A stretch of DNA of 64,000 nucleotides. Source: Escherichia phage FL04. Positions 6,974 through 42,519 of the stretch are shown here, one piece after another. Positions within the stretch are counted from its first letter, which is position 1. Every line of letters begins with the position of its first letter. The notes under the pieces were generated by a model. The model worked only from the letters and a program-made list of their open reading frames with translations. It did not search any database and was not told where the DNA came from. Position numbers and translations under genes: made by a program. The stretch is from the sequence record PP358550; one strand, written 5' to 3'.

Positions 6974-6976
6974 CGC

Positions 6977-12580: not shown

Positions 12581-12590
12581 GGTGATTGCT

Positions 12591-13079: not shown

Positions 13080-13083
13080 TATT

Positions 13084-13569
13084 ATGAAATGGGAAGAAGG
13101 TAAGACCTATGCGTTGGTTGGCGAATACGAAAAGCGTATTTTGCGTGATTGTTGGAGTTACGAACAAAGACCTAATATTGATGGTATGTTTACATATCTA
13201 GATAAACCATTTACTGTCGCTACGGTAGACCGTTGGGGTAATGTGCGTTCAATCTATAATCACGAAGGGGATTATATTAGTTCTATCGATATTGGTGATA
13301 ATATATGGTTTTCCGATGGTGACCGAGCGTGCTTCAAAGAAGTTTTATTACCTGGTCATGAATATGATCTAATAGACCTTCTCAAATTGGCGATGGATAA
13401 TTATAAAATTCGCTTTGAATGCAAATCACATGCGGCTATCGGTGCTAACGCCTTGCGTCATATCTCCAGTTTTGAAGAGTTGAAAGATTTTCTTGACAAA
13501 ATGCCGGAAAGAGTGCAAGCTATACAGGAAGCCGAGAAAGCATTAAACGAACTTGATAAAATCGGTTAA
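13084..13569 (+). CDS. hypothetical protein, multi-copy domain family
   Basis: MKWEEGKTY...DRACFKEV; tandem paralog. Confidence 0.6.
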   Translation: MKWEEGKTYALVGEYEKRILRDCWSYEQRPNIDGMFTYLDKPFTVATVDRWGNVRSIYNHEGDYISSIDIGDNIWFSDGDRACFKEVLLPGHEYDLIDLLKLAMDNYKIRFECKSHAAIGANALRHISSFEELKDFLDKMPERVQAIQEAEKALNELDKIG

Positions 13570-14415: not shown

Positions 14416-14416
14416 T

Positions 14417-14896
14417 ATGTTTGTTGTTGGTATGACCTATCAGTGGAAAAACGAGCGAGCGCGGAAAGTCTTTGCAACCAGTGTTGCAAATGATGCAATA
14501 GCAGACTTTATCGGTGACCGTACATTTAAAGTTATCGCTTTTGAAAAAATTGCGTCAGATATCGAATATGTTTCTGCGATTGAAATTGATGGAAAAACAT
14601 ACACCTGTCGAGATGTTGATGATGTACGGGAATACGCGCACAACTGGTTTTTGCAATCAGAAGAACGTTATTTTAAAGTGGTGTCGTCAGAACTGACTAC
14701 TGATGCAATGTTGGAACAATTCTTCAATAACTACGAAGTTTCTGTACGTCGCTATGGCGAAGAAGAAGTGTTTAAAATCGATGATTACAATCAGTTTAAA
14801 CGAGTATTCGCCACTAAGTTGCAGCGTGACTTTGAACGTGACCAACGGATCAAGGAACTGGAAGAAGAACTAGAAAGATTAAAGGCTGAGAAATGA
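14417..14896 (+). CDS. hypothetical protein, multi-copy domain family
   Basis: ATG 14417 after GAGGATGG; EERYFKVV motif; coiled-coil tail. Confidence 0.55.
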   Translation: MFVVGMTYQWKNERARKVFATSVANDAIADFIGDRTFKVIAFEKIASDIEYVSAIEIDGKTYTCRDVDDVREYAHNWFLQSEERYFKVVSSELTTDAMLEQFFNNYEVSVRRYGEEEVFKIDDYNQFKRVFATKLQRDFERDQRIKELEEELERLKAEK

Positions 14897-15162
14897 TCGA
14901 GATATACGGCATACCGAAAGAGGCTTATCATTGTTATGGTTGTATTAGTGCAATGAAGCTACTGGATGACCTGGGTATTCCGTATACACTTAAACCAGTA
15001 TTCAAGCAGGTCGGGGTTGACATTATTCCCGACCGTGATATGATTGAAGAACTGGCGTGGAGGCTGAACTCAAAGAGCCTCCGATTTGTATACCCCCAGA
15101 TATTCATTGACAACGAGCACATTGGAGGCTATAAAGAACTGAGGGCGATTTATGATTATTGA
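14893..15162 (+). CDS. nrdH: glutaredoxin-like protein
   Basis: CYGC redox motif, PQIF..GGY glutaredoxin signature; position after nrdG. Confidence 0.75.
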   Translation: MIEIYGIPKEAYHCYGCISAMKLLDDLGIPYTLKPVFKQVGVDIIPDRDMIEELAWRLNSKSLRFVYPQIFIDNEHIGGYKELRAIYDY

Positions 15163-23399: not shown

Positions 23400-24086
23400 A
23401 TGAAACTGACTAAAGAAACCATTGCTACCCTGAAAAACTTTTCCGCTATTAACCCAGGTATCATCCTGAAAAAAGGAAACGTCCTGATCACCAAAAACAT
23501 GACAAACGTTGTATATGGTGAAGCGACTCTGAATCAAGAACTGGAACACGAAATTGGGATCTATGATCTTAACTCTTTCTTGGGTATTCTGAATCTGGTA
23601 GGCGATGAAGCAGATATTACGGTTGATAACCGCACCGGAAACATTCGTGTGTCTAATGATCGTCTGAAAATTAATTATCCTGGTGCTAGTGCTGCCGCTA
23701 TCGTATCACCGAAAGGCCGAGTTACTCCACCTGCAAGCGATGTAGATTACGAACTGAGCAACGACGATCTGAAACAGCTTATGAAAATGAGCAATCAGCT
23801 TAAAGTGGATCGCCTTGAATTTCTTCCGATTGATGGTCGTCTGATGATCAAAGGCTGGGAAGAGATTGACAAAAATAATCCGAATGAGATGTTTTGTCTT
23901 GATATGGGCGAATATACCGGAACCGCAGACTTCCATTTCTTTATTCGTAAAGATAACATGAAACTGGTTGCTACTGACTTCGGAGATTACAAACTGAGCT
24001 TCACTCGCCGTAAGGCTGTATGGCTGGCAAGTGAAACCGTATCTTATATGATCGCGTGTGACCTTGACTCCAGCTACACCGACTAA
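23400..24086 (+). CDS. 45: sliding clamp gp45
   Basis: Translation matches T4 gp45 (MKL.K.T.A.LKNF..IN.GI.LK...). Confidence 0.9.
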   Translation: MKLTKETIATLKNFSAINPGIILKKGNVLITKNMTNVVYGEATLNQELEHEIGIYDLNSFLGILNLVGDEADITVDNRTGNIRVSNDRLKINYPGASAAAIVSPKGRVTPPASDVDYELSNDDLKQLMKMSNQLKVDRLEFLPIDGRLMIKGWEEIDKNNPNEMFCLDMGEYTGTADFHFFIRKDNMKLVATDFGDYKLSFTRRKAVWLASETVSYMIACDLDSSYTD

Positions 24087-24092
24087 TATAAT
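24064..24092 (+). promoter_or_regulatory. sigma70-type promoter for gene 44, within the 3' end of gene 45
   Basis: TTGACT 24064-24069, spacer 17, TATAAT 24087-24092; followed by leader palindrome GGGGAGT-N6-ACTCCCC 24099-24118. Confidence 0.45.
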
Positions 24093-24151
24093 GTTTGTGG
24101 GGAGTGTAAATACTCCCCGTTTTAATGATGTAATTTGTGAGAGGTGATTAT

Positions 24152-25126
24152 ATGCTGAGTGTTAATGAAAATGAGTTTCAGTGGGAACAGAAATACCGTC
24201 CGAAATCAATTTCTGAATGTATTCTGCCGGAAGCAGATAAAAAGATCTTCGCGCAGATTGTTAAGCAAGGCCGAATCCCTTCTATGATCCTGCATAGCCC
24301 ATCGCCGGGTACTGGTAAAACAACCGTTGCTAAGGCGCTTTGCGAAGATGTGGGTGTTGATTATCTGTTTGTTAACGGCGCAGATTGTAAGATTGATTTT
24401 ATCCGCGATGAGATTACACGCTTTGCGCAGAGTGTATCACTCGATGAAGAAAAACGAGAAAAAGGCAAAGTTGTTATTATCGATGAGTATGACCGAGCGG
24501 GGCTAGCTGATGCTCAAAGACACTTGCGTAGTTTCTCTGAGGCATACTCAAACAACGTGACATTCATTATCACAGCAAACGATCTAGAAGGTATTATCCC
24601 AGCGTTACGATCTCGATTTGATCCCATCACGTTTGGATCTCCGACTAAAGATGATCAGCTTCGCATGATGAAAGAAATGATCGTCCGGTGTAAAGCAATT
24701 CTTGATAAAGAAGGTGTACCAGTAGAAGAAATGCGCGTATTAGCGGAACTGGTTAAACAGAACTTCCCAGACTTCCGACGCGTAATGAAACTTTTGGACC
24801 GCTACGCTAAACATGGTAAAATTGATGCTGGCGTATTGAGCATGGTTATCGAAAGTAGCAATACCGAAGTAACCGATGTGGTGGAAGCACTTAAAACTAA
24901 ACAGTTTGCTAATGTGCGTAAACTTGCACCGCGATATACCAATACATACGCTCAATTTGTCAAGAAACTTTATAATGAGTTGTATACTCAAGTTAAGCCA
25001 GCTTCTATTATTCGTCTGACCGAGATTATCGGTGAAAATAATCAGATGTTTGCGCACGCGGCTGATAAAGAGATTCACATTGTCTTTTTGTTAATGCAAT
25101 TAATGGTTGAATTGGAGTTCGTATAA
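24152..25126 (+). CDS. 44: clamp loader large subunit gp44 (AAA+ ATPase)
   Basis: Walker A SPSPGTGKTT, DEYD box; strong match to T4 gp44. Confidence 0.95.
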   Translation: MLSVNENEFQWEQKYRPKSISECILPEADKKIFAQIVKQGRIPSMILHSPSPGTGKTTVAKALCEDVGVDYLFVNGADCKIDFIRDEITRFAQSVSLDEEKREKGKVVIIDEYDRAGLADAQRHLRSFSEAYSNNVTFIITANDLEGIIPALRSRFDPITFGSPTKDDQLRMMKEMIVRCKAILDKEGVPVEEMRVLAELVKQNFPDFRRVMKLLDRYAKHGKIDAGVLSMVIESSNTEVTDVVEALKTKQFANVRKLAPRYTNTYAQFVKKLYNELYTQVKPASIIRLTEIIGENNQMFAHAADKEIHIVFLLMQLMVELEFV

Positions 25127-25704
25127 TGTTAGGTCAATTTTTCGGTGAAGATGATACACAATTAAACGAGCATGAAATTGCATGGCGCTCTCGTGATTGG
25201 GAAAAGGTGTCTGAATTAGCTGACACATTCACCGAGAAAACCGACAATGCATTATTTGCTCTGATGGATCATATCACCTTAGATAAACAGCGCGTTAATG
25301 TTGGGAACAATTCTGCATATAACCAGAGATGGATTAATACCGCTCTTTCCCAGCACGCAGATTGCCTATATAGCGCGTATGTGATGAATTTAATCGGTCA
25401 TGGCCTCCCAGATCAAATGCATTTTGATTATCTCTTACAGAGTATTTCTAAGGGGAAACGATACGGTAAATGGGCTAAACTAACAGAAGAATTGGACCAA
25501 AAATTGGTTTTAATGGCAGTGGCGAAAGCATATTGTGTAAATATGGATGACGCCCGGTTTTATCTCGATTTGGCTAATGAAAAGGGATATATGGACAAGT
25601 TATTGAAGCACATTAAACCGTATGCGACCGATGAACTTTTGGCGGGTGTTACTAAGAATCAGACAGAAAGGAAACGACTTAAAAAGATTATAGAAAGGTG
25701 GTAA
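25126..25704 (+). CDS. 62: clamp loader small subunit gp62
   Basis: Similarity to T4 gp62; ATG overlaps gp44 stop (TAATG). Confidence 0.9.
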   Translation: MLGQFFGEDDTQLNEHEIAWRSRDWEKVSELADTFTEKTDNALFALMDHITLDKQRVNVGNNSAYNQRWINTALSQHADCLYSAYVMNLIGHGLPDQMHFDYLLQSISKGKRYGKWAKLTEELDQKLVLMAVAKAYCVNMDDARFYLDLANEKGYMDKLLKHIKPYATDELLAGVTKNQTERKRLKKIIERW

Positions 25705-25705
25705 A

Positions 25706-26068
25706 ATGATTGAAATTAATTTGATTAGTCCTGAAAACTTCCTTAAAATTAAGGAGACTTTAACCCGCTGCGGCATTGCCAACAATCGAGACAAGACGCT
25801 GTATCAGTCTTGTCATATTCTCCAGAAGAAAGGGCGCTATTACATCGTTCATTTCAAGGAGTTGTTGAAATTAGATGGTCGTAGTGTTAAAATGACGTGG
25901 GAAGATGAATTACGCCGTAATAACATTGCAAAACTTCTGGCGCAGTGGAATCTGTGTACCCTGATTGATAGTGATTTTGAAACTACCGAAGTTAATAATT
26001 TCCGTGTATTGTCTTTCAAACAGAAAGAAGAGTGGACGCTGATCGAGAAATATCAGATCGGACGATAA
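25706..26068 (+). CDS. regA: translational repressor RegA
   Basis: Near-identical stretches to T4 RegA (LYQSCHILQKKG.YYIVHFKE). Confidence 0.9.
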   Translation: MIEINLISPENFLKIKETLTRCGIANNRDKTLYQSCHILQKKGRYYIVHFKELLKLDGRSVKMTWEDELRRNNIAKLLAQWNLCTLIDSDFETTEVNNFRVLSFKQKEEWTLIEKYQIGR

Positions 26069-26089
26069 GATACTGATGGGATAGGGGTA

Positions 26090-26118
26090 TTGACAAACTA
26101 AGTCGATTCCCCTATAAT
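26090..26118 (+). promoter_or_regulatory. sigma70-type promoter upstream of gene 43
   Basis: TTGACA 26090-26095, spacer 17, TATAAT 26113-26118. Confidence 0.6.
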
Positions 26119-26150
26119 GAGTGTCTTTCGTAAGTGAAGGAGTTTATATT

Positions 26151-28829
26151 ATGTATTTTCTGTCATGTGAGCGAGTGGGTGATAAGATCTACGAGCGTTA
26201 TATTGATGATGCTGGACAAGAACAAGAGCGTTACGTTGAATATACGCCAACTTTATTTCATCATGCCGCGCCCGGTATGGTTACGAATTATAAAGATATC
26301 TATGGCAAGCCTTGCATTGCTAAAAAATTCCCATCTATGAACGAGGCCAACAAATGGCGTAAAAAGATGGGAGAAATGGGGCAGGAGGCACTAGGGATGG
26401 ATGATTTTATCATCTCCTATCTGTCCGATACATATAAAGGCGAGATTCGATATGACCGAAATAAAATCCGTGTAGCCTGGGTTGATATTGAGGTCACTGC
26501 ACCGGAATTTCCTAAACCAGAAGAAGCGAAATATCCTATCGATGCTATTACGCATTATGATTCCGTACATGATCGTTTCTTTGTATTTGATTTGAAAGGA
26601 AAAAACGGTGAAATCTGGGAAGCAAGCAAGTCTATTCTTCGACCTGATATTGTAGAGCGCGTTGTTTATAACGTCTATGACACAGAAGATGAATTGCTGT
26701 TAGAATACATCCGATTCTTTGAGGAAAACCGACCCGTTGGTTTCACTGGCTGGAACACAGAAACATTCGATATTCCATATATCATTAAACGTATCAGTAA
26801 TAAGTTCGGAAGTAGAACCGCTAACCGTCTAAGCCCATGCGGTAAGATTAAATCCCGAATCTCGCAGGATGATTTTGGCAACGAGCGTGAAGCATTTACG
26901 ATCATGGGGATCGAAAGCCTTGATTATATTGACCTGTACAAGAAATTTAGCTTTACGACTCAACCAACATATGCATTAGATTATGTTGCTGAATACGAGA
27001 CAGGAATCGGTAAGGTTGATTATGATGGTCCGTTAAAGAAATTGCGTGATGACAACCATCAACTTTACATCGATTATAACATCGGCGACGTTGATCGTGT
27101 GCTGGCGATTGATAAAAAGCGTGGATTTATCGATCTTGTGTATAGTCTATGTTTCTATGCAAAGATTAAATTTAACCATGTTTATAACCCGATGAAAGTA
27201 TGGGATGCTATTATCTTCGGATCTCTGAAAGCAGAGGGTAAAGTAGTACCGGAAAATAAGATACAGCCTAAGCAGACTTATCCTGGCGCATTCGTAAAAG
27301 AACCTGTACCGAATGCTTACCGTTGGATGATGAGCTTTGACTTAACAAGTCTGTACCCATCTATTATTCGACAGGTTAATATTTCTCCTGAAACAATCGC
27401 TGGATCTTTTGATGCTGCACCGATGCACGAGTATATCAATAAAACTGCACCACGTCCGAGTGATGAGTATTCTTGCTCGCCTAACGGATGGATGTATAGA
27501 AAAGATATTCACGGTATCGTACCGATTGAGATTAAAAAGGTATTCGATCAGCGTAAGCAGTACAAAAACATGATGTTGGCATGTGATCGCAATGCTGAAC
27601 TCTGTAAAGCGATTCTACACGATGAAAATCATGTTTATGGGGGAACCATTAGCTATAGCGTTGAAGTGCGTCACGACTTCGATGAAGCGTTTAAATCGAT
27701 GCTTTCTGAATTGAGCAAAGATGCCTTAGAGAAATTGCTGGAAGAATGTAAAGACGAGTCGATCTTGTGCAATACAAACCAGCTTTCTCGAAAAGTTTTG
27801 ATCAACTCCCTTTATGGTGCGTTGGGGAATCCTAAATTCCGTTTTTATGATCTCCGTAACGCTAGTGCGATCACACTGTTCGGTCAGCTTGCAATTCAGT
27901 GGATTGAGCGTAAGATTAACGAATACTTAAACGAGCTTTGCGGAACGACTGATTTTGCATATGTTCGTTATTGTGATACTGACTCCGTTTATGTGCTGGT
28001 TAACAATGTTATTGATAAGGTTGGCGGGGAAGACCGTTTCGACGATACCGAAAAACTTGTTGACTTCCTTGATAATTTCGGTAAACATCGAATGGAACCT
28101 ATTATCGACAAGGGATATCGCGAGTTATGCGAGTATATGAACAACTATGAGCACTTGATGTTTATGGACCGTGAGGCAATTGCTGGTCCTCCGTTGAAAT
28201 CTGCGGGTATCGGTGGATTCTGGACTGGTAAAAAGCGTTATGCTCTTAATGTTTGGGATATGGAAGGAACGCGCTTTGCTGAACCTAAGCTAAAAATCAT
28301 GGGCTTGGAAACGCAACGTAGCTCCACCCCTAAAGCATGTCAGAAATCACTGAAAGAATGTATTCGCCGTATGTTGCAGGAAGGTGAAGAGTCATTGCAG
28401 GAATACTACGGTATTTTTGAGCAAGAATTTAGAAAACTTGACTATCTTGATGTTGCTGCGGTATCATCTGCAAACAACCTACAGAAATACAGCGATTCAA
28501 ACGGGTATCCGATTAAGGGTTGTCCGTATGCGGTTAAGAGTGTATTGTGTTATAATCGTAATGCTCGAAAATTCGGACTAGACCCGATTCGTGAGGGTGA
28601 GAAGGTTATGATTGTACCGCTTAAAGACCGAAATCCGTTTGGAGAAATCTGTTTTGGTTGGTTGTCTGGTACTCGTATTCCACCAGAAATTGAATCAGAG
28701 GTGTTGAAGTGGTTGGACTGGCCTTTGTTGTTTAATAAGACTTTCGTCAAACCACTGGAGAACATTACCACGGCTGCAAAGCTGCAATATGAAAAAGTTG
28801 CTTCACTGACTGACCTGTTTGACATTTAA
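26151..28829 (+). CDS. 43: DNA polymerase (family B) gp43
   Basis: ATG 26151; exonuclease and polymerase motifs (FDIE, SLYPSIIRQVNISPET, YCDTDS) and end-to-end similarity to T4 gp43. Confidence 0.97.
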   Translation: MYFLSCERVGDKIYERYIDDAGQEQERYVEYTPTLFHHAAPGMVTNYKDIYGKPCIAKKFPSMNEANKWRKKMGEMGQEALGMDDFIISYLSDTYKGEIRYDRNKIRVAWVDIEVTAPEFPKPEEAKYPIDAITHYDSVHDRFFVFDLKGKNGEIWEASKSILRPDIVERVVYNVYDTEDELLLEYIRFFEENRPVGFTGWNTETFDIPYIIKRISNKFGSRTANRLSPCGKIKSRISQDDFGNEREAFTIMGIESLDYIDLYKKFSFTTQPTYALDYVAEYETGIGKVDYDGPLKKLRDDNHQLYIDYNIGDVDRVLAIDKKRGFIDLVYSLCFYAKIKFNHVYNPMKVWDAIIFGSLKAEGKVVPENKIQPKQTYPGAFVKEPVPNAYRWMMSFDLTSLYPSIIRQVNISPETIAGSFDAAPMHEYINKTAPRPSDEYSCSPNGWMYRKDIHGIVPIEIKKVFDQRKQYKNMMLACDRNAELCKAILHDENHVYGGTISYSVEVRHDFDEAFKSMLSELSKDALEKLLEECKDESILCNTNQLSRKVLINSLYGALGNPKFRFYDLRNASAITLFGQLAIQWIERKINEYLNELCGTTDFAYVRYCDTDSVYVLVNNVIDKVGGEDRFDDTEKLVDFLDNFGKHRMEPIIDKGYRELCEYMNNYEHLMFMDREAIAGPPLKSAGIGGFWTGKKRYALNVWDMEGTRFAEPKLKIMGLETQRSSTPKACQKSLKECIRRMLQEGEESLQEYYGIFEQEFRKLDYLDVAAVSSANNLQKYSDSNGYPIKGCPYAVKSVLCYNRNARKFGLDPIREGEKVMIVPLKDRNPFGEICFGWLSGTRIPPEIESEVLKWLDWPLLFNKTFVKPLENITTAAKLQYEKVASLTDLFDI

Positions 28830-28846
28830 GATAAAGTGTGTATAAT
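28819..28846 (+). promoter_or_regulatory. sigma70-type promoter (extended -10), inside 3' end of gene 43
   Basis: TTGACA 28819-28824, spacer 16, TGTGTATAAT ending 28846; GC-rich leader hairpin 28847-28873. Confidence 0.5.
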
Positions 28847-28890
28847 GGCGGGTGTTGGGTGACGATACCCGCCAATGTGAGAAATATATT

Positions 28891-29079
28891 ATGAGAGACA
28901 TTGAAAAGATTAAACGTGAACGTGAGGAAGGCATAGAGCACTTCAAGAAAGTTCATGGAAATCACAGCAACGAAGTATTTGTGACGATCGATGTTGATGC
29001 GATGAAAAAGTTAATTCAAGAGCACTACAAAGATCGAATAACAATGAAGCAATTAAAGTATTACGGATTAACTGAATAG
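28891..29079 (+). CDS. hypothetical protein
   Basis: ATG 28891 after GAGAAATATATT; occupies the slot where T4 has imm/42/beta-gt. Confidence 0.5.
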   Translation: MRDIEKIKREREEGIEHFKKVHGNHSNEVFVTIDVDAMKKLIQEHYKDRITMKQLKYYGLTE

Positions 29080-29090
29080 AGGTATTAATA

Positions 29091-30161
29091 ATGTCTGTAC
29101 TGGAAAAACTGAAAAAGAACTCTACCCTGAAAACTACTGCGGTACTGTCTAAATCCAGCTTCTTTAACGAAAAAACAAATACTCGCACTAAGATCCCGAT
29201 GCTGAATATTGCGTTTTCAGGTGATCTTAAAAAGGGCTTTCAATCTGGTCTGATTTTCTTTGCTGGTCCGTCTAAGCACTTTAAATCAAACATGGGATTA
29301 ACTTGTGTTAGTGCATACATGAAACAGAATCCTGATGCGGCGTGTTTGTTCTTTGATTCTGAGTTCGGTATTACACCCGCTTATCTTGAATCTATGGGTG
29401 TAGATCCTGATCGCGTGGTGCATGTTCCAATCAAGAACATCGAAGAACTTAAATTTGAAATCATGAACCAGCTTGAGCAAATTACCCGTGAAGATAAAGT
29501 GATCATCTTTATTGACTCAATCGGTAACTTAGCAAGTAAAAAAGAAGTTGAAGACGCGATTAATGAGAAATCCGCACAGGATATGACGCGAGCTAAAGCA
29601 CTTAAAGGCTTGTTCCGTATGGTGACGCCATATCTGACTATGAATGATATCCCGTGCATCGCTATTAACCACACTTACGAAACGCAAGAAATGTTTAGTA
29701 AGACCGTTATGTCCGGCGGTACGGGCGCGATGTATTCAGCCAATGAAGTTTTCATTATTGGTCGTCGTCAGCAGAAAGAAGGAACCGAAATTACTGGTTA
29801 TGATTTTATCCTGAATGCGGAAAAATCACGAACCGTTAAAGAAAAATCGAAGTTCCCGATTAGCGTAACATTTAGCGGTGGCATCGATCCTTATTCCGGC
29901 TTGCTGGAATTGGCTGTAGAGTTAGGCTGGGTAGTGAAACCGTCAAACGGCTGGTATTCCCGTTCAATCCTAAATACCGAGACCGGAGAGATGGAAACCG
30001 AAGAACGCAAGTTCCGTGCTAAAGAAACCAATAGCATTGAGTTCTGGAAACCACTTCTGACAAACGATAAGTTTAACGAAGCAATCAACGATCATTATAA
30101 GCTGGGGCAAGTGATCAGCGACGAAGCAGTTGACAAAGAAATCGAAGATATGTTAGCATAA
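29091..30161 (+). CDS. uvsX: recombinase UvsX (RecA-like)
   Basis: Strong similarity to T4 UvsX throughout (KIPMLNIAFSG, GPSKHFKSN, INHTYETQEMFSKTVM). Confidence 0.95.
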   Translation: MSVLEKLKKNSTLKTTAVLSKSSFFNEKTNTRTKIPMLNIAFSGDLKKGFQSGLIFFAGPSKHFKSNMGLTCVSAYMKQNPDAACLFFDSEFGITPAYLESMGVDPDRVVHVPIKNIEELKFEIMNQLEQITREDKVIIFIDSIGNLASKKEVEDAINEKSAQDMTRAKALKGLFRMVTPYLTMNDIPCIAINHTYETQEMFSKTVMSGGTGAMYSANEVFIIGRRQQKEGTEITGYDFILNAEKSRTVKEKSKFPISVTFSGGIDPYSGLLELAVELGWVVKPSNGWYSRSILNTETGEMETEERKFRAKETNSIEFWKPLLTNDKFNEAINDHYKLGQVISDEAVDKEIEDMLA

Positions 30162-30173
30162 CAATGGTAGTAA

Positions 30174-30195
30174 AGGGGCTACGTGCCCCTTTTTC
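30174..30195 (+). terminator. rho-independent terminator
   Basis: AGGGGC-TACGT-GCCCCT hairpin plus TTTTT. Confidence 0.6.
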
Positions 30196-30216
30196 ATATC
30201 TAGAGAGGATTATATT

Positions 30217-30534
30217 ATGGATAAGAAACCAACAAGTTTAGAAGAAGCACACAGCTTGATTCAAGAAGCAATGAAGACAGTTATCCAGGAACTGATAATT
30301 GTTGATGAAGAGGGAGAACATCATATTGTCTATATTCATAATGTTGAATACGATCCAGACACTAAAGGTATTGTGGTCGACTACTCCACGCCGTCAGATC
30401 GTGATGTGGTATATCCACACGTCATTAAGGCGTTAACCGCGCAGATCAAAGAAGCAGAAGAAAAGTTGAAAAAAGAAACTTTCTGGTATAAACTCAAGAC
30501 CTTTGTTATGCGTGTAGTTGGGGGCTATGTATGA
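30217..30534 (+). CDS. hypothetical protein (positional equivalent of T4 gene 40)
   Basis: GAGGATTATATT-ATG; hydrophobic C-terminus; lies between uvsX and 41. Confidence 0.5.
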   Translation: MDKKPTSLEEAHSLIQEAMKTVIQELIIVDEEGEHHIVYIHNVEYDPDTKGIVVDYSTPSDRDVVYPHVIKALTAQIKEAEEKLKKETFWYKLKTFVMRVVGGYV

Positions 30535-31943
30535 TTAAAACTATCTTTTCACAGTTGATTTACAATGGCGCATTCTTTACGAATGTATGGCCTCACCTTA
30601 AAGCGGACTACTTCACCGAAGACGAAGAAAAACTGATTTATAAGCTGATTAAAAAGCACGTAGACGAATATTCCAATATTCCTACGCCAACAGCATTACA
30701 GATTGCTTTAGACAAGGAGAGAGGCAATCAGACAACATATGAAGGGGCGAAAACTCTTCTTGATTCGCTTGAGAATACACCGGAAGACCTTGATTGGTTA
30801 ATGAAGGAAACCGAAAAATTTATTCGTGACCGTGCTATGTACAATGCAATGTCACGGGCGCTAGAGATTCAGGCGAACGCACAACTACCAAAAGAGAAAC
30901 AGAATAAGAAATTGCCGAGTGAGGGTGCTATTCCTGAGATCATGCAGGAAGCACTATCCATTACGTTTGATTCTGATGTAGGTCATGACTGGTTTAATGA
31001 CTTTGAAAAACGATTCTTGCTATATCAGACTAAGGCGAATAAGATCCCGTTTAAGCTGCCGATGTTGAATAAAATCACGAAAGGAGGGGCGGAAAGAAAA
31101 ACGCTAAATGTGTTGCTTGCTGGTGTAAACGTTGGTAAATCGCTTGGCTTGTGTTCTCTTGCTGCGGATTATATGGAATGTGGTTATGATGTATTGTATA
31201 TCTCAATGGAGATGGCAGAGCATGTAGTAGCAAAACGTATCGACGCAAACTTGCTTGACATTACATTAGATGAATTGGATAATGGTAATGTTTCTTTTGC
31301 GGAATATTCCGCACGTATGAAGCGTGTTAAGAATAAGAAGATCGGAGATCGTCCGGTTGGAAAATTGATGATCAAGCAGTATCCGACTGGTGGCGCGAAC
31401 TCCAATCACTTTGAGGCGTTAATGAATGAATTGCGACTCAAGAAACAGTTTAAACCTGATGTTGTGATTGTTGACTATCTGGGGATTTGCGCATCGTCTC
31501 GCTTGCGTGTATACTCTGAAAATAGTTACACACTAGTTAAGGCGATTGCGGAAGAACTGCGAGGTTTTTTTGTTAAGTGGGATGTTGTTGGTTGGACTGC
31601 GGCACAGACTACCCGTGCTGGTTGGGATGCTTCCGACCTTAACATGAGTGATACCGCTGAATCAGCAGGTCTTCCGGCTACAGCAGATTTTATGTTGGGT
31701 GTTATTGAAACCGAAGACCTGGCTAAAATGGGCGTCCAACTCATGAAGCAGATCAAGTCTCGTTACGGTGATAAGAACTATTATTCACGGTTTAACGTTG
31801 GTGTGAAAAAAGGCAATCAGCGTTGGTATGAAGTACCAAACCAGATCGCAGATCAGGAGAATGCACAAGTTAAACCACAAAGCGCACAGCAAGCCGAGAA
31901 ACGAGAAAAACTCGACGAGCTAGCAAATAACATGACTTTCTAA
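30531..31943 (+). CDS. 41: replicative DNA helicase gp41 (DnaB-like)
   Basis: Walker A GVNVGKSLGLCSLAADY and extensive similarity to T4 gp41. Confidence 0.95.
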   Translation: MIKTIFSQLIYNGAFFTNVWPHLKADYFTEDEEKLIYKLIKKHVDEYSNIPTPTALQIALDKERGNQTTYEGAKTLLDSLENTPEDLDWLMKETEKFIRDRAMYNAMSRALEIQANAQLPKEKQNKKLPSEGAIPEIMQEALSITFDSDVGHDWFNDFEKRFLLYQTKANKIPFKLPMLNKITKGGAERKTLNVLLAGVNVGKSLGLCSLAADYMECGYDVLYISMEMAEHVVAKRIDANLLDITLDELDNGNVSFAEYSARMKRVKNKKIGDRPVGKLMIKQYPTGGANSNHFEALMNELRLKKQFKPDVVIVDYLGICASSRLRVYSENSYTLVKAIAEELRGFFVKWDVVGWTAAQTTRAGWDASDLNMSDTAESAGLPATADFMLGVIETEDLAKMGVQLMKQIKSRYGDKNYYSRFNVGVKKGNQRWYEVPNQIADQENAQVKPQSAQQAEKREKLDELANNMTF

Positions 31944-31949
31944 TAAAAT

Positions 31950-31965
31950 GCGCCCTGCGGGGCGC
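31950..31965 (+). other. GC-rich tetraloop hairpin (weak terminator or RNA stability element)
   Basis: GCGCCC-TGCG-GGGCGC directly after gene 41 stop; no U-tract. Confidence 0.35.
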
Positions 31966-31993
31966 TGGTGAATGATTTGATAGGAGATATAAC

Positions 31994-32629
31994 ATGATCG
32001 CTAATGCTTTACCGCCAAAATGGATCGTAAGTCGCTTTTATACTCTCAAGGAAGGTAACGCACCTGATGGTCGTCCGATCCGAGATCTGTTTCTGGAGAT
32101 GACTACAGCCGAAGCACAGTTTTATAATGATCTGACAGACGATAAGCCATTTCTCGTAAATTCGGTGGACCTTGATGGCAATGTCACATCAATCATCACA
32201 CATGGTGGGGGAGTGAAAAATATTACTTCTCTGCGTGATCACGGTTGGGAAATTGCTTGTGTATTTCCTGCGGATGTACGCGGATTCTTTGATGAGGTAT
32301 CTGATATTAAAGTAAATGCACTGGAACCATATGACGAGATCCCACCACTGAAAGAAGAAAAAGAGTTGACACCAGAAGATGTAGATAGTACACTACACCC
32401 AGACCTATTTAAGAAGATTAGCGGTTTATGGACTGTTACCCTGTATCCAACCGCATTAGGTCTAGAATTGGGTATGCCAACTTATTCTGATATTGATAAC
32501 TGGAATAAGAGCATTGATAAAGAGGTTACAAGAGAGCGAAATAATGCTAAAATGCAACTTAAAGAGAAACGCAAAAATCTTGAACGACAACTGAAAGAAA
32601 CAAAACATTTGCTTTCTACATTCGATTGA
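31994..32629 (+). CDS. hypothetical protein, multi-copy domain family plus coiled-coil tail
   Basis: PKWIVSRFYTLKEG...VRGFFDEV shares family motifs. Confidence 0.55.
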   Translation: MIANALPPKWIVSRFYTLKEGNAPDGRPIRDLFLEMTTAEAQFYNDLTDDKPFLVNSVDLDGNVTSIITHGGGVKNITSLRDHGWEIACVFPADVRGFFDEVSDIKVNALEPYDEIPPLKEEKELTPEDVDSTLHPDLFKKISGLWTVTLYPTALGLELGMPTYSDIDNWNKSIDKEVTRERNNAKMQLKEKRKNLERQLKETKHLLSTFD

Positions 32630-36836: not shown

Positions 36837-38227
36837 TGAGCAGAGTATTAACTTTCGATATGTTAACAGACGGGCAAAAACATGCTTTTGATGTTCTAAT
36901 GAAACGCATTGAACAAAAGAAGCATACAACTGTCCGGGGTGCGGCGGGTACTGGTAAAACCGCAATGATGAAATTCATTGTTCAGGAAATGGTCCGCCGT
37001 GGTGTAACTGGTGTGGTTTTGGCAACGCCTACCCACCAGGCTAAAAAAGTTTTGAGTAAAGCGGTAGGTCGTCAAGCATTTACTTTACATGCACTACTGC
37101 GACTAAACCCGACCAACTATGAAGATACTCAAGTATTTGAGCAAAAAGATACTCCTAAGCTAGATGATGTTCAGATCATCATTGTTGATGAAGCGAGTAT
37201 GGTCGATAAGAAACTATTTGATATTCTCATGAAGAGTATCAACGGTCGAATTGTTATTATTGCCGTGGGTGATCTGTACCAGTTACGACCAGTTGATCCG
37301 AGCGGTGCAACGTCGATCTCTCCTTTCTTCACCGATGAAAGGTTTCAGAATGTAGAACTTACAGAGATTAAACGATCTAATGCGCCAATAATTGATGTGG
37401 CGACCGCTGTCCGTAATGGTAAATGGGTATTCGAAAAGCAGTGCGGTAACGAGGGTGTATTCCATAGCTCAACTCTGCCGGAGTTTATGAAGCATTATTT
37501 CGAAACCGTTAAAACGCCGGAAGACCTTCTAGAAAACCGTATTCTGGCCTACACTAACAAGAGCGTCGAAAAACTCAATGAAATTGTGCGTAAGCGCGTT
37601 TATAACACCGATGAACCAGTGATTGTAGATGAAATTCTGGTTACTCAGGAACCATTGATCGAATATCTGCGAGATGAACGCGGGAAGAAGATTCCCAATG
37701 TTATTTTTAACAATGGTGAGATGATCCGAGTTAAAGAGGTCATCCCGCGTGAATTTACATTACGTTGCACGGGTGTAGATCCGCAACCAGTTTTAGGATA
37801 TACTCTGAAAGTGGAAAGCGTCGATGATGACGAAGACAAAGAAATCCTAAATCAGAAAGTCGGTTTAGATGCAGTCGGAATAACTACAGATAAACCAGAT
37901 TTAGTAGAAATCAACATTCTGACAGAACAACGTCAGAAGAACATTTTCTCTATCTATCTGAATACGGTCGCCGGACAATATCGCGAAATGAAGAAAGAGA
38001 ATCCGAATTTTAAACCGGATTGGGATTCTTTCTGGACGATGAAGCGTATGTTCTTGAATGTAAAAGCATTACCAGCTTGCACTATTCATAAGTCACAAGG
38101 AATCAGCGTAGACCGCGTGTTCCTGTATACCCCTTGCATGTGTACAGATAATGTTGACTTTGAATTGGCAATGCAGTTATTATATGTGGGTGTTACCCGT
38201 GCACGGTATCGTGTAGACTATATTTGA
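36836..38227 (+). CDS. dda: SF1 DNA helicase Dda
   Basis: Walker A GAAGTGKT, strong similarity to T4 Dda across the length. Confidence 0.95.
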   Translation: MSRVLTFDMLTDGQKHAFDVLMKRIEQKKHTTVRGAAGTGKTAMMKFIVQEMVRRGVTGVVLATPTHQAKKVLSKAVGRQAFTLHALLRLNPTNYEDTQVFEQKDTPKLDDVQIIIVDEASMVDKKLFDILMKSINGRIVIIAVGDLYQLRPVDPSGATSISPFFTDERFQNVELTEIKRSNAPIIDVATAVRNGKWVFEKQCGNEGVFHSSTLPEFMKHYFETVKTPEDLLENRILAYTNKSVEKLNEIVRKRVYNTDEPVIVDEILVTQEPLIEYLRDERGKKIPNVIFNNGEMIRVKEVIPREFTLRCTGVDPQPVLGYTLKVESVDDDEDKEILNQKVGLDAVGITTDKPDLVEINILTEQRQKNIFSIYLNTVAGQYREMKKENPNFKPDWDSFWTMKRMFLNVKALPACTIHKSQGISVDRVFLYTPCMCTDNVDFELAMQLLYVGVTRARYRVDYI

Positions 38228-38238
38228 GGAATATTATT

Positions 38239-38406
38239 ATGATTATGCGAAGTATCCCAGAATTTGACGAAGTGAAAGTATCGTATCATGGCGAATGTGT
38301 ATACATGCATTTCAGGTGGGGTAACTACGGATGGGGTATATCTGGAATCAGCGAGGCCGATTGTATTAATTCCATGATAGATCACTTCACTAAGCGGGGT
38401 TACTGA
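38239..38406 (+). CDS. hypothetical small protein
   Basis: ATG 38239 after GAGGAATATTATT. Confidence 0.4.
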   Translation: MIMRSIPEFDEVKVSYHGECVYMHFRWGNYGWGISGISEADCINSMIDHFTKRGY

Positions 38407-38407
38407 T

Positions 38408-38647
38408 ATGATGATTATTGATGAACTTGATAAACTGTTATGTTTAGATGCCATCGTAACATTCCATCGTGATAAAATTCACGCTGATTATGCACAACAT
38501 GTAATGTCTTTTCGACATAAAGTACAGTCGGTACAGGCGATGGAAAGTTTACTGATTAATGTTTGCAATTATCGGTCAACCAAATGCAATCTAGTGTTAG
38601 ATAAAAACGATCTGGAGTTATTCCGGCACATCGCGGAGGATATTTAA
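38408..38647 (+). CDS. hypothetical protein
   Basis: ORF. Confidence 0.5.
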   Translation: MMIIDELDKLLCLDAIVTFHRDKIHADYAQHVMSFRHKVQSVQAMESLLINVCNYRSTKCNLVLDKNDLELFRHIAEDI

Positions 38648-38648
38648 A

Positions 38649-39317
38649 ATGCTTCCAGTGGATTTAATGATTGACTTTGAAAGTTTAGGTTATCCGCCTG
38701 ATGGGGCGGTTATCAATATGGCGGCAATCGGATTTAAAGAAGATCCGCACAATCCACCTACATTTAAAGAACTGGTCGACAATTCCTTTCTGGTAAAATT
38801 TGATATTCCTTCCCAGAAAGGTGTAAGGGTGTTTGATCATGGTGTGGTTGAATGGTGGAAGAATACCGCCTCAGAAGGCATGAGAAAGCAATTAATCACA
38901 AATGGTACGGAAGTATCAACTAAAGAAGGTTTAGCGCGTTTTAACGCATTCTGTGAAGCCGTAGGAGTAGATCCGGTTAAATCCGTAATGTGGTCACGCG
39001 GTAATGCGTTTGATATTCCGTTACTAGTTGATATGATCCGCCGTGCACACAATACACGAGAGACGTTCAGCCTTGAACCTGTGCGATTCTGGAATATCCG
39101 AGATGTTCGCACCGCCATTGAGCGTACATTGATGCATCGCGGGATGTGTGAGTGTCCGTTACCAATGGGTACGCTAGATGGTTTTATCGCACATGATGCA
39201 ATTCATGATTGCGCTCGCGATATTCTTATGCTAATCTATGCACAACGTTATGCTATGGGTCTGGAAGACCTACCAGAAAATCCAGATCCAAATTCAGTTA
39301 AGAAACAAAGGGGATAA
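38649..39317 (+). CDS. dexA: exonuclease A (DnaQ-like 3'-5' exonuclease)
   Basis: Strong similarity to T4 DexA (IDFE..G, KFD..SQKG, EWWKN, TLDGF.AHD.IHDCA.DILM..YA.RYAMGLED). Confidence 0.9.
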   Translation: MLPVDLMIDFESLGYPPDGAVINMAAIGFKEDPHNPPTFKELVDNSFLVKFDIPSQKGVRVFDHGVVEWWKNTASEGMRKQLITNGTEVSTKEGLARFNAFCEAVGVDPVKSVMWSRGNAFDIPLLVDMIRRAHNTRETFSLEPVRFWNIRDVRTAIERTLMHRGMCECPLPMGTLDGFIAHDAIHDCARDILMLIYAQRYAMGLEDLPENPDPNSVKKQRG

Positions 39318-39318
39318 T

Positions 39319-39492
39319 ATGCCATTATACGATTATTCTTGTGAAGAACACGGTCAATTTCAGAAAATCCGCAAAATTTCCGAACGTGAAAAGGCAGAAT
39401 GCCCTGAATGTGGTAAAGAATGCAAACAGGGATTAACTGCCCCGCGCGGTATTAATGGCGGGTACTATGATAAAAATGTGCGCGTGTCATGA
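39319..39492 (+). CDS. small zinc-ribbon protein
   Basis: ATG 39319 after GGGGATAAT; C..H ... CPEC arrangement. Confidence 0.5.
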   Translation: MPLYDYSCEEHGQFQKIRKISEREKAECPECGKECKQGLTAPRGINGGYYDKNVRVS

Positions 39493-39595
39493 GTCATATA
39501 CTTGACAATCACTCAATTTTTAATATGATTGTTGCAGCCGTCTTTGTGGCGGTTGCAGTAAGTTATGGTTATGTTATGTATTGGAGAGAGAAAAA

Positions 39596-40324
39596 GTGAA
39601 CATCAAAAAGTTTATTGTTGATGTTCTGGAGGCGAAAAGCGGAAATAGACTAAACTCAAATCTTTTTAAAGAAAATAAAATTCCAGAAATGGAAAAATTG
39701 TATCCTGCGGAATTTCAGATTATAAGGAATGAGTTTAAGTTCTGTAATGGAGGTCTCAGAAATCAACAACCATATAACGAGGCTGTTTATAGATTGCGCC
39801 ACGGAATAACAGGAAGAGTTAAATGTGCAAGATGCCCAAATCCTGTAAATTATCATACATACTCTAGAGGCTATCATAAATTTTGCTGTTCTCGTTGCGC
39901 ATCGTTGGACCAGGCACAAAACATAAAGATTGAACGAGAATGCGCTAAATGTGGTAAACCATTTGTTGCAATAAACGTATCTCAAAAGTATTGTTCTGAT
40001 GAGTGTCGATTGTTCGAGAAGCGAGAGCGAGAACTAGATAGGCCATATCATCATGCCGAAAATGGTATAAAAATATCAAAAAGAGAAGCGTTAGAAATTT
40101 TAGGCAGAGTTGACAATTGCGAGATATGCGGTGTAAAATTCATAAATGAACGATGCGGCGTGAGAAAACGCCAAAAGTGGAAACATCTTGACCATAATCA
40201 TAAGACTGGTAAGATAAGAGGTGTTCTTTGTGGAAAATGTAATGCCGGATTAGGGATGTTCAAAGACGATCCTCAAAGATTATATGCGGCATTGGAATAC
40301 CTGAAACGAACTGACGGAGAATGA
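39596..40324 (+). CDS. HNH-type endonuclease with Endonuclease VII-like catalytic domain and N-terminal multi-CxxC region
   Basis: GTG start after GGAGAGAG; C-terminal HLDHNHKTGKIRGVLCGKCN matches EndoVII motif; several CxxC pairs; visibly AT-richer than flanks. Confidence 0.7.
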   Translation: MNIKKFIVDVLEAKSGNRLNSNLFKENKIPEMEKLYPAEFQIIRNEFKFCNGGLRNQQPYNEAVYRLRHGITGRVKCARCPNPVNYHTYSRGYHKFCCSRCASLDQAQNIKIERECAKCGKPFVAINVSQKYCSDECRLFEKRERELDRPYHHAENGIKISKREALEILGRVDNCEICGVKFINERCGVRKRQKWKHLDHNHKTGKIRGVLCGKCNAGLGMFKDDPQRLYAALEYLKRTDGE

Positions 40325-40330
40325 TATAAT

Positions 40331-42154
40331 ATGTCTGAATTTTTGCTGTTAGATGATCGCGCTCACTGTCTTAAGAGACCTTCAATGTACATCGGGTCAA
40401 CGACTTATGAATCACACAATCGTTTCCTATTTGGAAAATGGACCAAAGTTTCATACGTTCCTGGTCTAGTTAAAATTATTGATGAAATTATCGACAATTC
40501 TGTAGACGAGGCGATCCGCACTAATTTTGAGTACGCTAATGTTATTAGTGTGGATATAAAAGATAACATTGTGTCAGTAACAGATAATGGTCGCGGTATT
40601 CCGCAACATATTGTTACGACGCCAGAAGGGAAACAGATTCCACAACCAGTTGCTGCATGGACACGAGCTAAAGCAGGGTCTAACTTTGATGATACAAATC
40701 GTGTTACTATGGGTATGAATGGGATCGGAAGCGCGCTCACATCATTTTTCTCGTCCTGGTTTACTGGTGTGACGTGTGACGGAGAGAATGAACTGACCGT
40801 TCAATGTACCAATGGTGCAGAAAATATTAGCTGGTCATCTAAGCCGTCAAAACTGAAAGGAACTAAGGTTACGTTCTGCCCCGATTTCGATCATTTTGAA
40901 GGTATGATCATGTCACAAGAAATTTCAGATGTAATTTGTGACCGTATGTATTCCTTAAGTGTAATCTTTCCTAAGATCACGTTTAAGTTTAATGGCAAAA
41001 AGATAACCAGCAAATTCAAGGATTATGCTAAACTATACAATGATGATCCGTTTGTCATTGAAGATAAAAACTTTTCACTTGCCCTAGTTCCTGCGGTTGA
41101 AGGTGAAGGTTTTAAATCAGTATCATTTGCTAATGGTCTGTTTACCAAAAACGGGGGAACACACGTTGATTATGTGACAGATGATCTTTGTGAAGAGATT
41201 GTAAAACGAATCAAGAAAGAATATAAGGTTGATGTTACTAAAGCTGCGGTTAAGTCTGGATTGACCTGTATTCTTATTGTTCGTGAATTGCCAAACCTCC
41301 GTTTTGATTCACAGACAAAAGAACGATTGACTAATCCAACTGGTGATATCAAGCGTCATATTGATCTTGATTTTAAAAAACTGGCTAAAGTCATTGCGAA
41401 GAAAGAAAACATTATCATGCCTATTATTGCTGTAGTCCTGGCACGCAAAGAGGCAGCAGATAAAGCGGCAGCGACTAAGGCAGCAAAGGCAGCGAAACGG
41501 GCTAAGGTGGCAAAACACGTTAAAGCTAACCTTATTGGAACTGACGCAGAAACTACCCTGTTTTTGACGGAAGGTGATTCCGCGATCAACTATCTGATCT
41601 CTGTACGTGATCAAGATTTACATGGCGGTTTCCCGTTGCGAGGCAAAACTCTTACAACGTGGGAACAACCGGAGGCAAAGATCGTTAAGAACGCCGAAAT
41701 TTTTAACATCATGGCGATCACTGGCTTGCAATTTGGTGTTGATGCATTGGAAGTTATGCAATACAAAAATATTGCGATTATGACAGACGCTGATACTGAC
41801 GGGATTGGGTCTATTAAGCCTAGTCTGATCTCTTTCTTTGCACGTTGGCCTGAATTGTTCGAAGATGGACGAATCCGGTTTATCAAAACACCTATTATCA
41901 TTGCGGAACCAAAGAAAGGTGATGATGTTCGATGGTATTATGACCTAGAAGATTTTGAGAACGACCGAGATAATATCAAAGGTTATAGCATTCGATATAT
42001 CAAAGGGTTAGCATCGCTTACAGAATCAGATTATCATCGCGTGATCAACGATCCTGTAATGGAAATCATCACGTTACCGGAAAACTATAAAGAGCTATTC
42101 GATTTGCTCTATAGTGAAGATGCAGATCAGCGCAAAATTTGGATGCAATCATAA
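40331..42154 (+). CDS. 39: DNA topoisomerase II large subunit (GyrB-like), fused 39+60 type
   Basis: 607 aa; ATPase motifs (IDNSVDE, GRGIP, GLHG); continuous ORF without the T4 gene 60 split. Confidence 0.95.
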   Translation: MSEFLLLDDRAHCLKRPSMYIGSTTYESHNRFLFGKWTKVSYVPGLVKIIDEIIDNSVDEAIRTNFEYANVISVDIKDNIVSVTDNGRGIPQHIVTTPEGKQIPQPVAAWTRAKAGSNFDDTNRVTMGMNGIGSALTSFFSSWFTGVTCDGENELTVQCTNGAENISWSSKPSKLKGTKVTFCPDFDHFEGMIMSQEISDVICDRMYSLSVIFPKITFKFNGKKITSKFKDYAKLYNDDPFVIEDKNFSLALVPAVEGEGFKSVSFANGLFTKNGGTHVDYVTDDLCEEIVKRIKKEYKVDVTKAAVKSGLTCILIVRELPNLRFDSQTKERLTNPTGDIKRHIDLDFKKLAKVIAKKENIIMPIIAVVLARKEAADKAAATKAAKAAKRAKVAKHVKANLIGTDAETTLFLTEGDSAINYLISVRDQDLHGGFPLRGKTLTTWEQPEAKIVKNAEIFNIMAITGLQFGVDALEVMQYKNIAIMTDADTDGIGSIKPSLISFFARWPELFEDGRIRFIKTPIIIAEPKKGDDVRWYYDLEDFENDRDNIKGYSIRYIKGLASLTESDYHRVINDPVMEIITLPENYKELFDLLYSEDADQRKIWMQS

Positions 42155-42157
42155 CAC

Positions 42158-42185
42158 TTGACATACAAGGGAGATTCTCTATAAT
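42158..42185 (+). promoter_or_regulatory. sigma70-type promoter with dyad GGGAGAtTCtC/GaGTCTCCC around -10
   Basis: TTGACA 42158-42163, spacer 16, TATAAT 42180-42185; palindrome 42169-42196. Confidence 0.55.
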
Positions 42186-42219
42186 GGGAGTCTCCCTTTT
42201 CTTTTATGAGGATTTAATA

Positions 42220-42519
42220 ATGAGCAAAAAGAATAACATGATGATGAGTATGGCAAAGTTCATGGAAGCAGACCTGATCAAAAATACAGTACAGCATGAA
42301 CGCCAGAGAGAAGCCGCAGTGATTGCAGAACAAGGTTTTCAGGTTATCCACAATCCACCTAAAGACACGGTTAAATCGAAATACAGAGACGATCTGAAAG
42401 ACCATGAAGTACGGGAACTGGTTAATGATCTGCGTGACATTGCCATCAAATATCATGGTTATCAGTGCTTACGAGAACTGATCGCAGAGCGAGTAATGGA
42501 TGCATTGAAAAAAGATTAA
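42220..42519 (+). CDS. hypothetical protein
   Basis: ATG 42220 after GAGGATTTAATA. Confidence 0.55.
   Translation: MSKKNNMMMSMAKFMEADLIKNTVQHERQREAAVIAEQGFQVIHNPPKDTVKSKYRDDLKDHEVRELVNDLRDIAIKYHGYQCLRELIAERVMDALKKD

Follow-up and report, generated by a model that had tools for sequence, protein, structure and literature searches.

What is the open reading frame (ORF) that fills the 5' untranslated leader of topoisomerase gene 39 in Escherichia phage FL04, and did it come there by its own activity? The window, by which we mean the whole stretch of 64,000 nucleotides (nt) analyzed from sequence record PP358550, belongs to a Krischvirus (RB49-like, Straboviridae): a megablast search with 38600-42200 returned 58 Krischvirus records at 93-99% identity. 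On its plus strand, an ORF that starts with GTG at 39596 and ends with TGA at 40324 encodes 242 amino acids (aa) plus the stop, and gene 39 begins 6 nt past that stop. A first-pass annotation, made from the letters of the window alone, had read this ORF as a free-standing homing endonuclease gene, and we consider it likely that it is one, belonging to the endonuclease VII (Endo VII)-motif "DHHRN" family and lodged in the gene 39 leader. This reading is supported by the optional presence of the gene, by a divergent tract of gene 39 linked to it, by the use of the same slot in other phages, and by a published prediction for a homolog in phage VR7.

The nuclease occupies the C-terminal part of the protein. 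Pfam Endonuclease_7 (PF02945) matches aa 173-237 (E=5.3e-16; 58.7 bits, cut-off 23.6), and the Endo VII core motif that the first-pass annotation had recognized there, HLDHNHKTGKIRGVLCGKCN, falls at aa 197-216 (nt 40184-40243); PHROG matches are to the "endonuclease VII" and "HNH endonuclease" families. The zinc ligands of the nuclease core (C175/C178 and C212/C215) and the DHHRN residues (D199, H200, H202, R208, and N216) lie in invariant or nearly invariant columns of a 70-sequence alignment, and the protein contains the family motif CX2-4C ... D-H-x-H ... R ... CX2C-N, for which the reference is Endo VII D40, H41, H43, R54, and N62 with the zinc ligands (Fang et al. 2018, PMC6083498). A domain search for Endonuclease_7 and HNH profiles, as the first-pass annotation had proposed, bears out the former only: Endonuclease_7 alone passes E<=0.01, and the classical HNH Pfam models give no match. 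The central Asn of H-N-H is missing from the Endo VII motif (Fang et al. 2018, PMC6083498), and the protein still belongs to the wider beta-beta-alpha-metal superfamily. Its best PDB match is Hpy99I (3fc3; E=1.8e-9), with T4 Endo VII at E=0.005; Hpy99I was also ranked first by Foldseek on the AlphaFold model, and the PADLOC model for Type II restriction endonucleases (REase) is matched at E=4e-10. The AlphaFold model has a mean pLDDT of 70.7 and is confident just for aa ~110-240; as the first 110 residues are of low confidence, we make a fold claim for none of them. PF09124, the T4 Endo VII dimerization domain, is absent from the protein in the Pfam search, and with a C-terminal motif, no dimerization domain, and a separate gp49 in the same genome the ORF has the layout of the endonuclease clade, its placement there being by way of the published tree of VR7 gp6.

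Zinc fingers precede the nuclease. CxxC pairs stand at aa 77, 98, and 116 and a CxxxC at aa 133, the further CxxC pairs at aa 175 and 212 belonging to the nuclease domain, so that the several N-terminal pairs described in the first-pass annotation exist but are found in the middle of the protein rather than strictly at its N terminus. A unit of aa ~54-105, composed of a helix and a CxxC...FCxxC finger, matches five tandem repeats in protein P0125 (BLASTP E=1e-7 to 8e-4) and recurs as three to five repeats in large proteins that have Vsr/MTES_1575-type or HNH-type nuclease ends and PHROG "homing endonuclease" matches. We presume this unit to be a DNA-recognition module; it would fit the "beads on a string" layout of zinc-finger DNA binding known in other phage homing endonucleases (PMC10448857). 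The second finger has weak DUF2116, YacG, and treble-clef matches. We rejected the gyrase inhibitor YacG as an identity for the first finger (window 39815-39910, aa 74-105), which adjoins a GyrB-like gene: the resemblance is subthreshold (Pfam E=0.018, NCBIfam E=0.0046, weak Foldseek match) and most likely reflects a generic treble-clef fold with no functional link, because the finger unit, a common tandem repeat, matches generic treble-clef families and many unrelated proteins. The full architecture is rare, with about seven clusters at 50% identity among 1.84 billion representative proteins and four clusters in a search of 5.8 billion proteins; an IMG/VR scan with the ORF protein gave distant C-terminal matches alone and no further loci of its family.

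Within Krischvirus the gene is optional. Comparing the junction in relatives, as suggested in the first-pass annotation, yields a clean polymorphism: the ORF is present in 12 of the 58 records (MIZ2-6, Skers, G2248, PHB13, JK32, G5211, E26, and JEP8) and absent from the remaining 46, among them RB49, Phi1, JSE, and GEC-3S, and is thus not conserved in all relatives. Since some records are GenBank/RefSeq duplicates and the MIZ isolates are nearly identical to one another, these amount to ~9 independent carriers, plus the window. Carrier copies are all full length (protein identity 96.7-98.8%), the ORF is intact in 7/7 sampled Krischvirus carriers and at two further loci (L067 and L068), and with ratios of nonsynonymous to synonymous substitution rates (dN/dS) of 0.10-0.21 against the window copy it is under purifying selection. 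Intact copies, alongside one internally deleted metagenomic copy described below, suit a working gene with the usual life history of a homing endonuclease. Carriers form no clade elsewhere in the genome: in an identity ranking over an 8-kb block of replication genes they are spread from rank 5 to rank 53, and the closest relative of the window in that block, LF73P4, is without the ORF. They are assigned to at least two species of the International Committee on Taxonomy of Viruses (RB49 and gec3s), the type phages of which lack it.

Junction comparisons with G37-3 and RB49 delimit the insert as a 752-nt cassette with clean boundaries, identical among carriers. With it come new ribosome-binding sites, one for the endonuclease gene and one for gene 39, the second codon of which is TCT in carriers and AGT in G37-3 and RB49. 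We found neither terminal inverted repeats nor a target-site duplication at the boundaries (39579 and 40330), the features that a transposon or insertion sequence would have. The GTG start follows a Shine-Dalgarno sequence, GGAGAGAG, at 39583-39590 and overlaps the TGA of a 36-aa upstream ORF (39489-39599) as GTGA; the ORF listing also offers an earlier TTG at 39581, but 39596, as chosen in the first-pass annotation, is the better start because homologs begin at the equivalent position. The same annotation had called the ORF visibly AT-rich, which is real but modest: its G+C content (GC) is 37.3% against a window mean of 40.5% (SD 2.0%, 729-nt windows), a value that 3.9% of windows equal or undercut, and GC at third codon positions (GC3) is 0.29 as compared with 0.35-0.39 in adjoining genes.

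The cassette is tightly linked to a foreign-looking stretch covering the first 684 nt of gene 39, which we call X-type. There the window is ~78% identical to the RB49 allele against a background of 97-99%, and the 580 nt left of the insert are 99.6-100% identical to RB49. A search with the tract found exactly 13 records, namely the 12 carriers and G37-3 (1 of the 46 noncarriers), an association with Fisher p=1.5e-11 if kinship among the records is ignored. In every carrier sampled, the diagnostic sites are in the X-type state and the tract stops at the same right end. Outside the 13 records no donor above ~78% was found; as other Krischvirus stand at ~78% and the next-best phages at 65%, the donor lineage is unsampled. 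L067 and L068 were examined as donors and rejected. E26 and JEP8 have a tract subvariant that is 7% different from the window, and their ORFs diverge from it by ~5% in the 3' two-thirds and almost not at all in the 5' third, so recombination occurs within the ORF as well.

Carrier G5211 and noncarrier G37-3, both from one collection of German manure isolates, show just 2 differences in the 2250 nt that reach from gene 39 nt ~290 across the downstream HNH_3 ORF, but 12 differences in the first ~190 nt of gene 39, in addition to the presence of the ORF. We read this as a short conversion tract anchored at the ORF, from a recent gain or loss, and G37-3 attests to an ORF-less lineage of the X-type allele. 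Taken over the natural variants, in Krischvirus and in the second genus described below, tracts anchored at the gene 39 start measure ~57, ~190-290, 684, and ~1200 nt, and the first 120 nt of gene 39 are invariant among four sampled noncarriers. Tracts of several lengths point, indirectly, to co-conversion of the flank, general recombination being a possible alternative cause. We presume that the X-type tract is such a co-converted flank, that it contains the target region, and that gene 39 is the target gene of the endonuclease.

The same slot is used elsewhere. Gaprivervirus phages VR7, VR26, RZ, and TH15 have full-length homologs (41-45% identity) directly upstream of gene 39, and most genomes of that genus, for example VR25, have none; the left neighbor of the slot is 39.1 in Gaprivervirus as opposed to the 36-aa ORF in Krischvirus. 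Gene 39 of VR26 and RZ is 60-80% identical to that of VR25 over its first ~1200 nt, and VR7 differs from VR25 in codons 3-19 only (~57 nt; ~97% identical thereafter), mostly by synonymous changes that include two TCN-to-AGC serine switches. The VR7 cassette begins directly behind a hairpin and what, read by eye, resembles a MotA-box middle promoter; it lies between the promoter region of gene 39 and its ribosome-binding site, the native version of which has been replaced. Functionally, the VR7 and window cassettes are in equivalent positions. A 169-kb metagenomic contig has a 61% homolog between a Zn-ribbon (39.2-like) gene and gene 39, and two short metagenomic contigs have a 76% homolog and an internally deleted copy of 180 aa, both adjoining gene 39. 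Relatives of the ORF are seen in the gene 39 slot in three other lineages. Other ORFs in the slot combine GIY-YIG and NUMOD3 domains (in P479 of Gaprivervirus, L066 2230-3027, where an I-TevI DNA-binding domain is present as well, and in L022 5310-5987), and in L038 (5037-5990) it is occupied by a DUF7487 protein that has the zinc-finger module of our ORF and PHROG "homing endonuclease" matches. An IMG/VR scan with gp39 found a range of T4-like loci, with no Krischvirus carriers among them.

Table 1. Coordinates in the window of the endonuclease gene, its predicted domains, the inserted segment, and adjoining features
Feature	Position	Strand	Details and basis
Predicted free-standing homing endonuclease gene	39596..40324	+	GTG start, stop included, 242 aa; Pfam, PHROG, 12/58 Krischvirus records
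Helix + treble-clef zinc-finger module (aa ~54-105; C77, C80, C97/98, C101)	39755..39910	+	BLASTP to P0125 repeats
Second zinc finger (aa 116-137; C116, C119, C133, C137)	39941..40006	+	Sequence; treble clef; AlphaFold (AF2) pLDDT 82-86
Beta-beta-alpha-metal nuclease core (aa 173-237)	40112..40306	+	Pfam, 70-sequence alignment, Hpy99I match, AF2 pLDDT 76-92
Full inserted segment, 752 nt replacing 13 nt (AAGAGGTTTAATA)	39579..40330	+	Junctions vs. G37-3 and RB49
Gene 39, topoisomerase II large subunit, unsplit "39+60" form, 607 aa	40331..42154	+	Pfam, PHROG, annotation of relatives
Divergent X-type tract of gene 39 (gene nt 4-684)	40334..41014	+	153 diagnostic sites; linked to the endonuclease gene
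36-aa upstream ORF (RB49p006.1 homolog)	39489..39599	+	Last 7 codons rewritten by the insert; stop overlaps the endonuclease start
Promoter-like site TTGACA-16-TATGAT (11/12), then stem-loop	39502..39561	+	Consensus scan only; left of the insert

How might such a gene be expressed and spread? From an upstream promoter, the gene 39 message would be made with the endonuclease gene as its first cistron, and the promoter-like site left of the insert (39502-39529), the sequence of which, stem-loop included, is found in ORF-less phages too, is the likely source of a transcript carrying both genes. The scan gave 16 promoter-like sites against 11.8 expected, so single sites are leads only; one of them, TTGACA-18-TAAAAT at 40110-40139, lies within the endonuclease ORF and might drive gene 39. 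No match to the T4 late promoter (TATAAATA) or to a MotA box was found in 38500-42400. Translation would be low-level, by coupling to the 36-aa upstream ORF through the GTG start and the GTGA overlap; a hairpin over the start codon (39598-39626) was rejected as a regulatory element (z=-1.1 vs. shuffles; not kept in homologs). In a mixed infection, the enzyme would nick or cut gene 39 of an ORF-less phage, within the early part of the gene. Hpy99I makes a double-strand cut. MobA and MobE of T4 nick DNA (PMC2988022). We would place the cut in the first tens to hundreds of nt of gene 39, because both the VR7/VR25 and the G5211/G37-3 pairs point there, the most likely site being the first ~60 nt (predicted range, nt ~9-60), which encode the conserved motif LSD.EH..KR.GMYIG. 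The break would be resected and then repaired from the carrier genome, copying the endonuclease gene and a variable length of adjoining gene 39 into the recipient, and the carrier allele would be spared because it differs in sequence at the site. That the protein cleaves DNA, where it does so, and that the gene is actively mobile are points that we infer.

A broader proposal, to which we give tentative and rather doubtful standing, is that the gene 39 leader and first codons form a shared homing slot of the Straboviridae, where the Endo VII-motif lineage recognizes the DNA that encodes KRPGMYIG, an N-terminal ATPase motif that is nearly universal. If that were true, one slot would serve at least two unrelated nuclease families (Endo VII-motif and GIY-YIG), with HNH-type genes occurring elsewhere beside or inside gene 39, and recognition of the KRPGMYIG-encoding DNA would lead to the crossing of genera, to repeated overwriting of 60-1200 nt of ATPase-domain coding sequence, and to functional chimeric topoisomerases.

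Several observations weigh against reading the ORF as an actively homing gene. Its low GC deviates by only 1.6 SD. One right end of the 684-nt tract is shared by all Krischvirus carriers, so the chimera has a single origin, and ordinary recombination in a highly mosaic genus could account for how it spread afterwards. Patches 78-90% identical to RB49 also occur elsewhere in the window (12501-13500, 14001-15000, and 38001-38500; also 2501-3000, 4001-4500, and 6501-7000), and such patches, for example the first two, have no matched adjoining endonuclease gene; tblastn of the window with four endonuclease proteins of related phages gave no match near the divergent patches. The X-type tract occurs without the ORF in G37-3, so it is not strictly ORF-dependent, the X-type allele may be susceptible, and the equation of tract with immunity is weakened. 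Finally, the promoter and stem-loop 18 nt left of the insert resemble in architecture the PeSL (promoter plus stem-loop) elements of RB49 and phi1, which have been proposed as drivers of cassette shuffling (PMC2839356), so a nonhoming route of cassette exchange is available.

The shared endpoint, the unmatched patches, and the PeSL-type site would all suit a passive cargo, meaning a nuclease that serves another purpose (it might compete with co-infecting phages, for example, or attack host or foreign DNA) and was moved by general T4-like recombination or PeSL exchange and not by its own cleavage of gene 39. We judge this unlikely, because there is no second PeSL on the right and the exchanged block ends within the gene 39 coding sequence; because homologs of 41-61% identity keep the gene 39 position despite a different left neighbor; because unrelated GIY-YIG endonuclease genes sit in the same slot; and because the conversion tracts, though they differ in length, share the gene 39 start as their anchor.

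Decay of homing endonucleases would offer another account, in which the ORF is a decaying or domesticated relic, immobile and either kept by linkage to gene 39 or co-opted. The 180-aa metagenomic copy (P0003; L069 61-603) favors it, with a 62-aa deletion that takes out the second zinc finger and the linker as well as the first of the two Cys pairs in the nuclease domain; this copy has a divergent 5' third and a different left junction retaining AAGAGGTTTAA, its 3' end and gene 39 are of the window type, and it looks both degenerate and recombinant. A 2-nt deletion in MIZ4 and MIZ5 (~window 39584-39585, in the GA-rich ribosome-binding region) alters the start by fusing the 36-aa ORF in frame to the endonuclease ORF, the MIZ4 fusion (L058 2390-3223) being annotated as a single hypothetical protein of 277 aa, and T4 mobA has been described as a pseudogene (10.1101/2022.08.31.505936). 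Still, no catalytic residue is missing from the window copy or from any sampled Krischvirus copy, all of them full length and with the dN/dS values given above, and the G5211/G37-3 pair indicates recent gain or loss, which makes a relic quite improbable here. As for gp49, the ORF at 5589-6062 is the true one, as the first-pass annotation had it, with Endonuclease_7 and PF09124 both found, and it has only the core HLDH.H...RG.L..CN in common with our protein. That this shared motif, and the labels "endonuclease VII" or "recombination endonuclease" that several GenBank records give our ORF, mark a second junction-resolving or repair enzyme, a gp49 paralog serving recombination or packaging, is very improbable, since the T4 gp49 resolvase type requires an N-terminal catalytic and a dimerization domain and is a core gene, whereas the ORF lacks PF09124, has its motif at the C terminus behind zinc fingers, is nearer Hpy99I than T4 Endo VII, is missing from 46 of 58 relatives that all have the gene 49 region, and has a VR7 homolog in the endonuclease clade and not the resolvase clade (PMC6083498).

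Gene 39 itself is intact at 607 aa, as the first-pass annotation had noted, with the Pfam domains HATPase_c, DNA_gyraseB, Toprim, and TOPRIM_C all found. Just 3' of it, at 42158-42198, a perfect TTGACA-16-TATAAT (12/12) shares sequence with a 13-bp stem-loop that leads into a T-run, which makes it a textbook case of the PeSL-type elements known from RB49 and phi1. Other endonuclease genes are scattered through the genus. An ORF with HNH_3 and AP2 domains stands directly 3' of gene 39 in G5211 (L003 5057-5620) and G37-3 (L004 4318-4881), and in JSE according to the G5211 annotation note, so that in G5211 gene 39 has endonuclease genes on both sides; the corresponding window junction (~42127-42157) is without it. 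The gene 43 region (window 24000-32000) is uninterrupted in the window, while MIZ4/5, G5211, JSE, ECD7, Sf20, KFS-EC, and others align there in two pieces and are annotated with a split DNA polymerase and an HNH or homing endonuclease. RB49p040, an HNH/AP2 endonuclease ORF between gene 47 and a-gt.4 in RB49 (L008 26380-26934), has no tblastn match in the window, and G37-3 has no annotated gene at that position (L009 28001-28093); it looks like another optional endonuclease gene of the genus.

The ORF adds to a homing-endonuclease family that has already been described, and brings no new principle and no new kind of element. Its value is as a well-delimited natural example for a family whose sole characterized member is F-CphI, with material at hand in the form of a carrier and a noncarrier that are near-isogenic at the locus (G5211 and G37-3), two very different noncarrier alleles (RB49-type and X-type), and the same arrangement in another genus. 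The selfish gene carries along part of an essential topoisomerase gene, which matters when phylogenies and recombination maps are read for phages studied for therapy.

Among known systems, the closest are the VR7 gp6 (VR7ORF006c) homologs, the first of which Fang et al. (2018, PMC6083498) called a probable free-standing homing endonuclease. These proteins (VR7, VR26, RZ, and TH15) share with our ORF the full-length architecture, the position upstream of gene 39, and optional presence within the genus, and differ from it in belonging to another genus and subfamily, in having 39.1 on the left, and in tract length (~57 nt in VR7, ~1200 nt in VR26 and RZ). F-CphI of cyanophage S-PM2 is the founding DHHRN homing endonuclease, in which the D, H, H, R, and N residues and two Cys pairs are required for activity by mutagenesis (PMC6083498). 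Like the ORF, it is free-standing, comes from a T4-like phage, lies beside a conserved target gene, and has a C-terminal Endo VII motif; compared by description and not by alignment, it is a shorter protein, with the nuclease motif at residues 71-129. F-CphI targets psbA and acts in concert with a group I intron by which its own genome is protected, whereas our locus has no intron, so that any protection would need sequence differences.

T4 offers analogs from other nuclease families. The remark in the first-pass annotation that a mobile mobA interrupts the T4 topoisomerase gene is correct according to the literature, in which mobA is free-standing, located at 60.1/39, and has gene 39 as target (PMC2988022). 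MobA resembles the ORF in targeting the topoisomerase gene, which is the presumed target here, in its GUG start, and in its overlap with an upstream ORF (PMC2988022; 10.1101/2022.08.31.505936). It is, however, a classical HNH enzyme, described as an HNH domain joined to a DNA-binding region at the C terminus, and it inserts inside the gene (codons ~466-473) and splits 39 from 60, whereas the window gene 39 is whole with the insert in its leader; MobA also travels with a 50-nt translational bypass cassette, unlike the window insert. T4 free-standing endonuclease genes typically have a GUG start, overlap an upstream ORF, and are inserted without a promoter (PMC2988022), and the ORF matches them in all three. 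SegF, SegG, and MobE, known for "intronless homing" and marker exclusion (PMC2988022), are like the window locus optional genes with conserved neighbors and co-conversion of the flank, and the Seg and Mob enzymes have their cut sites in the neighboring conserved gene (PMC2988022); they are of a different nuclease family, and Seg-like GIY-YIG genes are what P479 and L022 have in the gene 39 slot. Hpy99I, the best sequence and fold match to the nuclease domain, is a sequence-specific double-strand cutter with the same motif, but it is a bacterial restriction enzyme with a methylase, a different N-terminal domain, and no homing mobility. Finally, gene 39 of G5211, bracketed by the ORF and the HNH_3/AP2 ORF, resembles the "HEG-island" arrangement of Barth et al. 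(2023).

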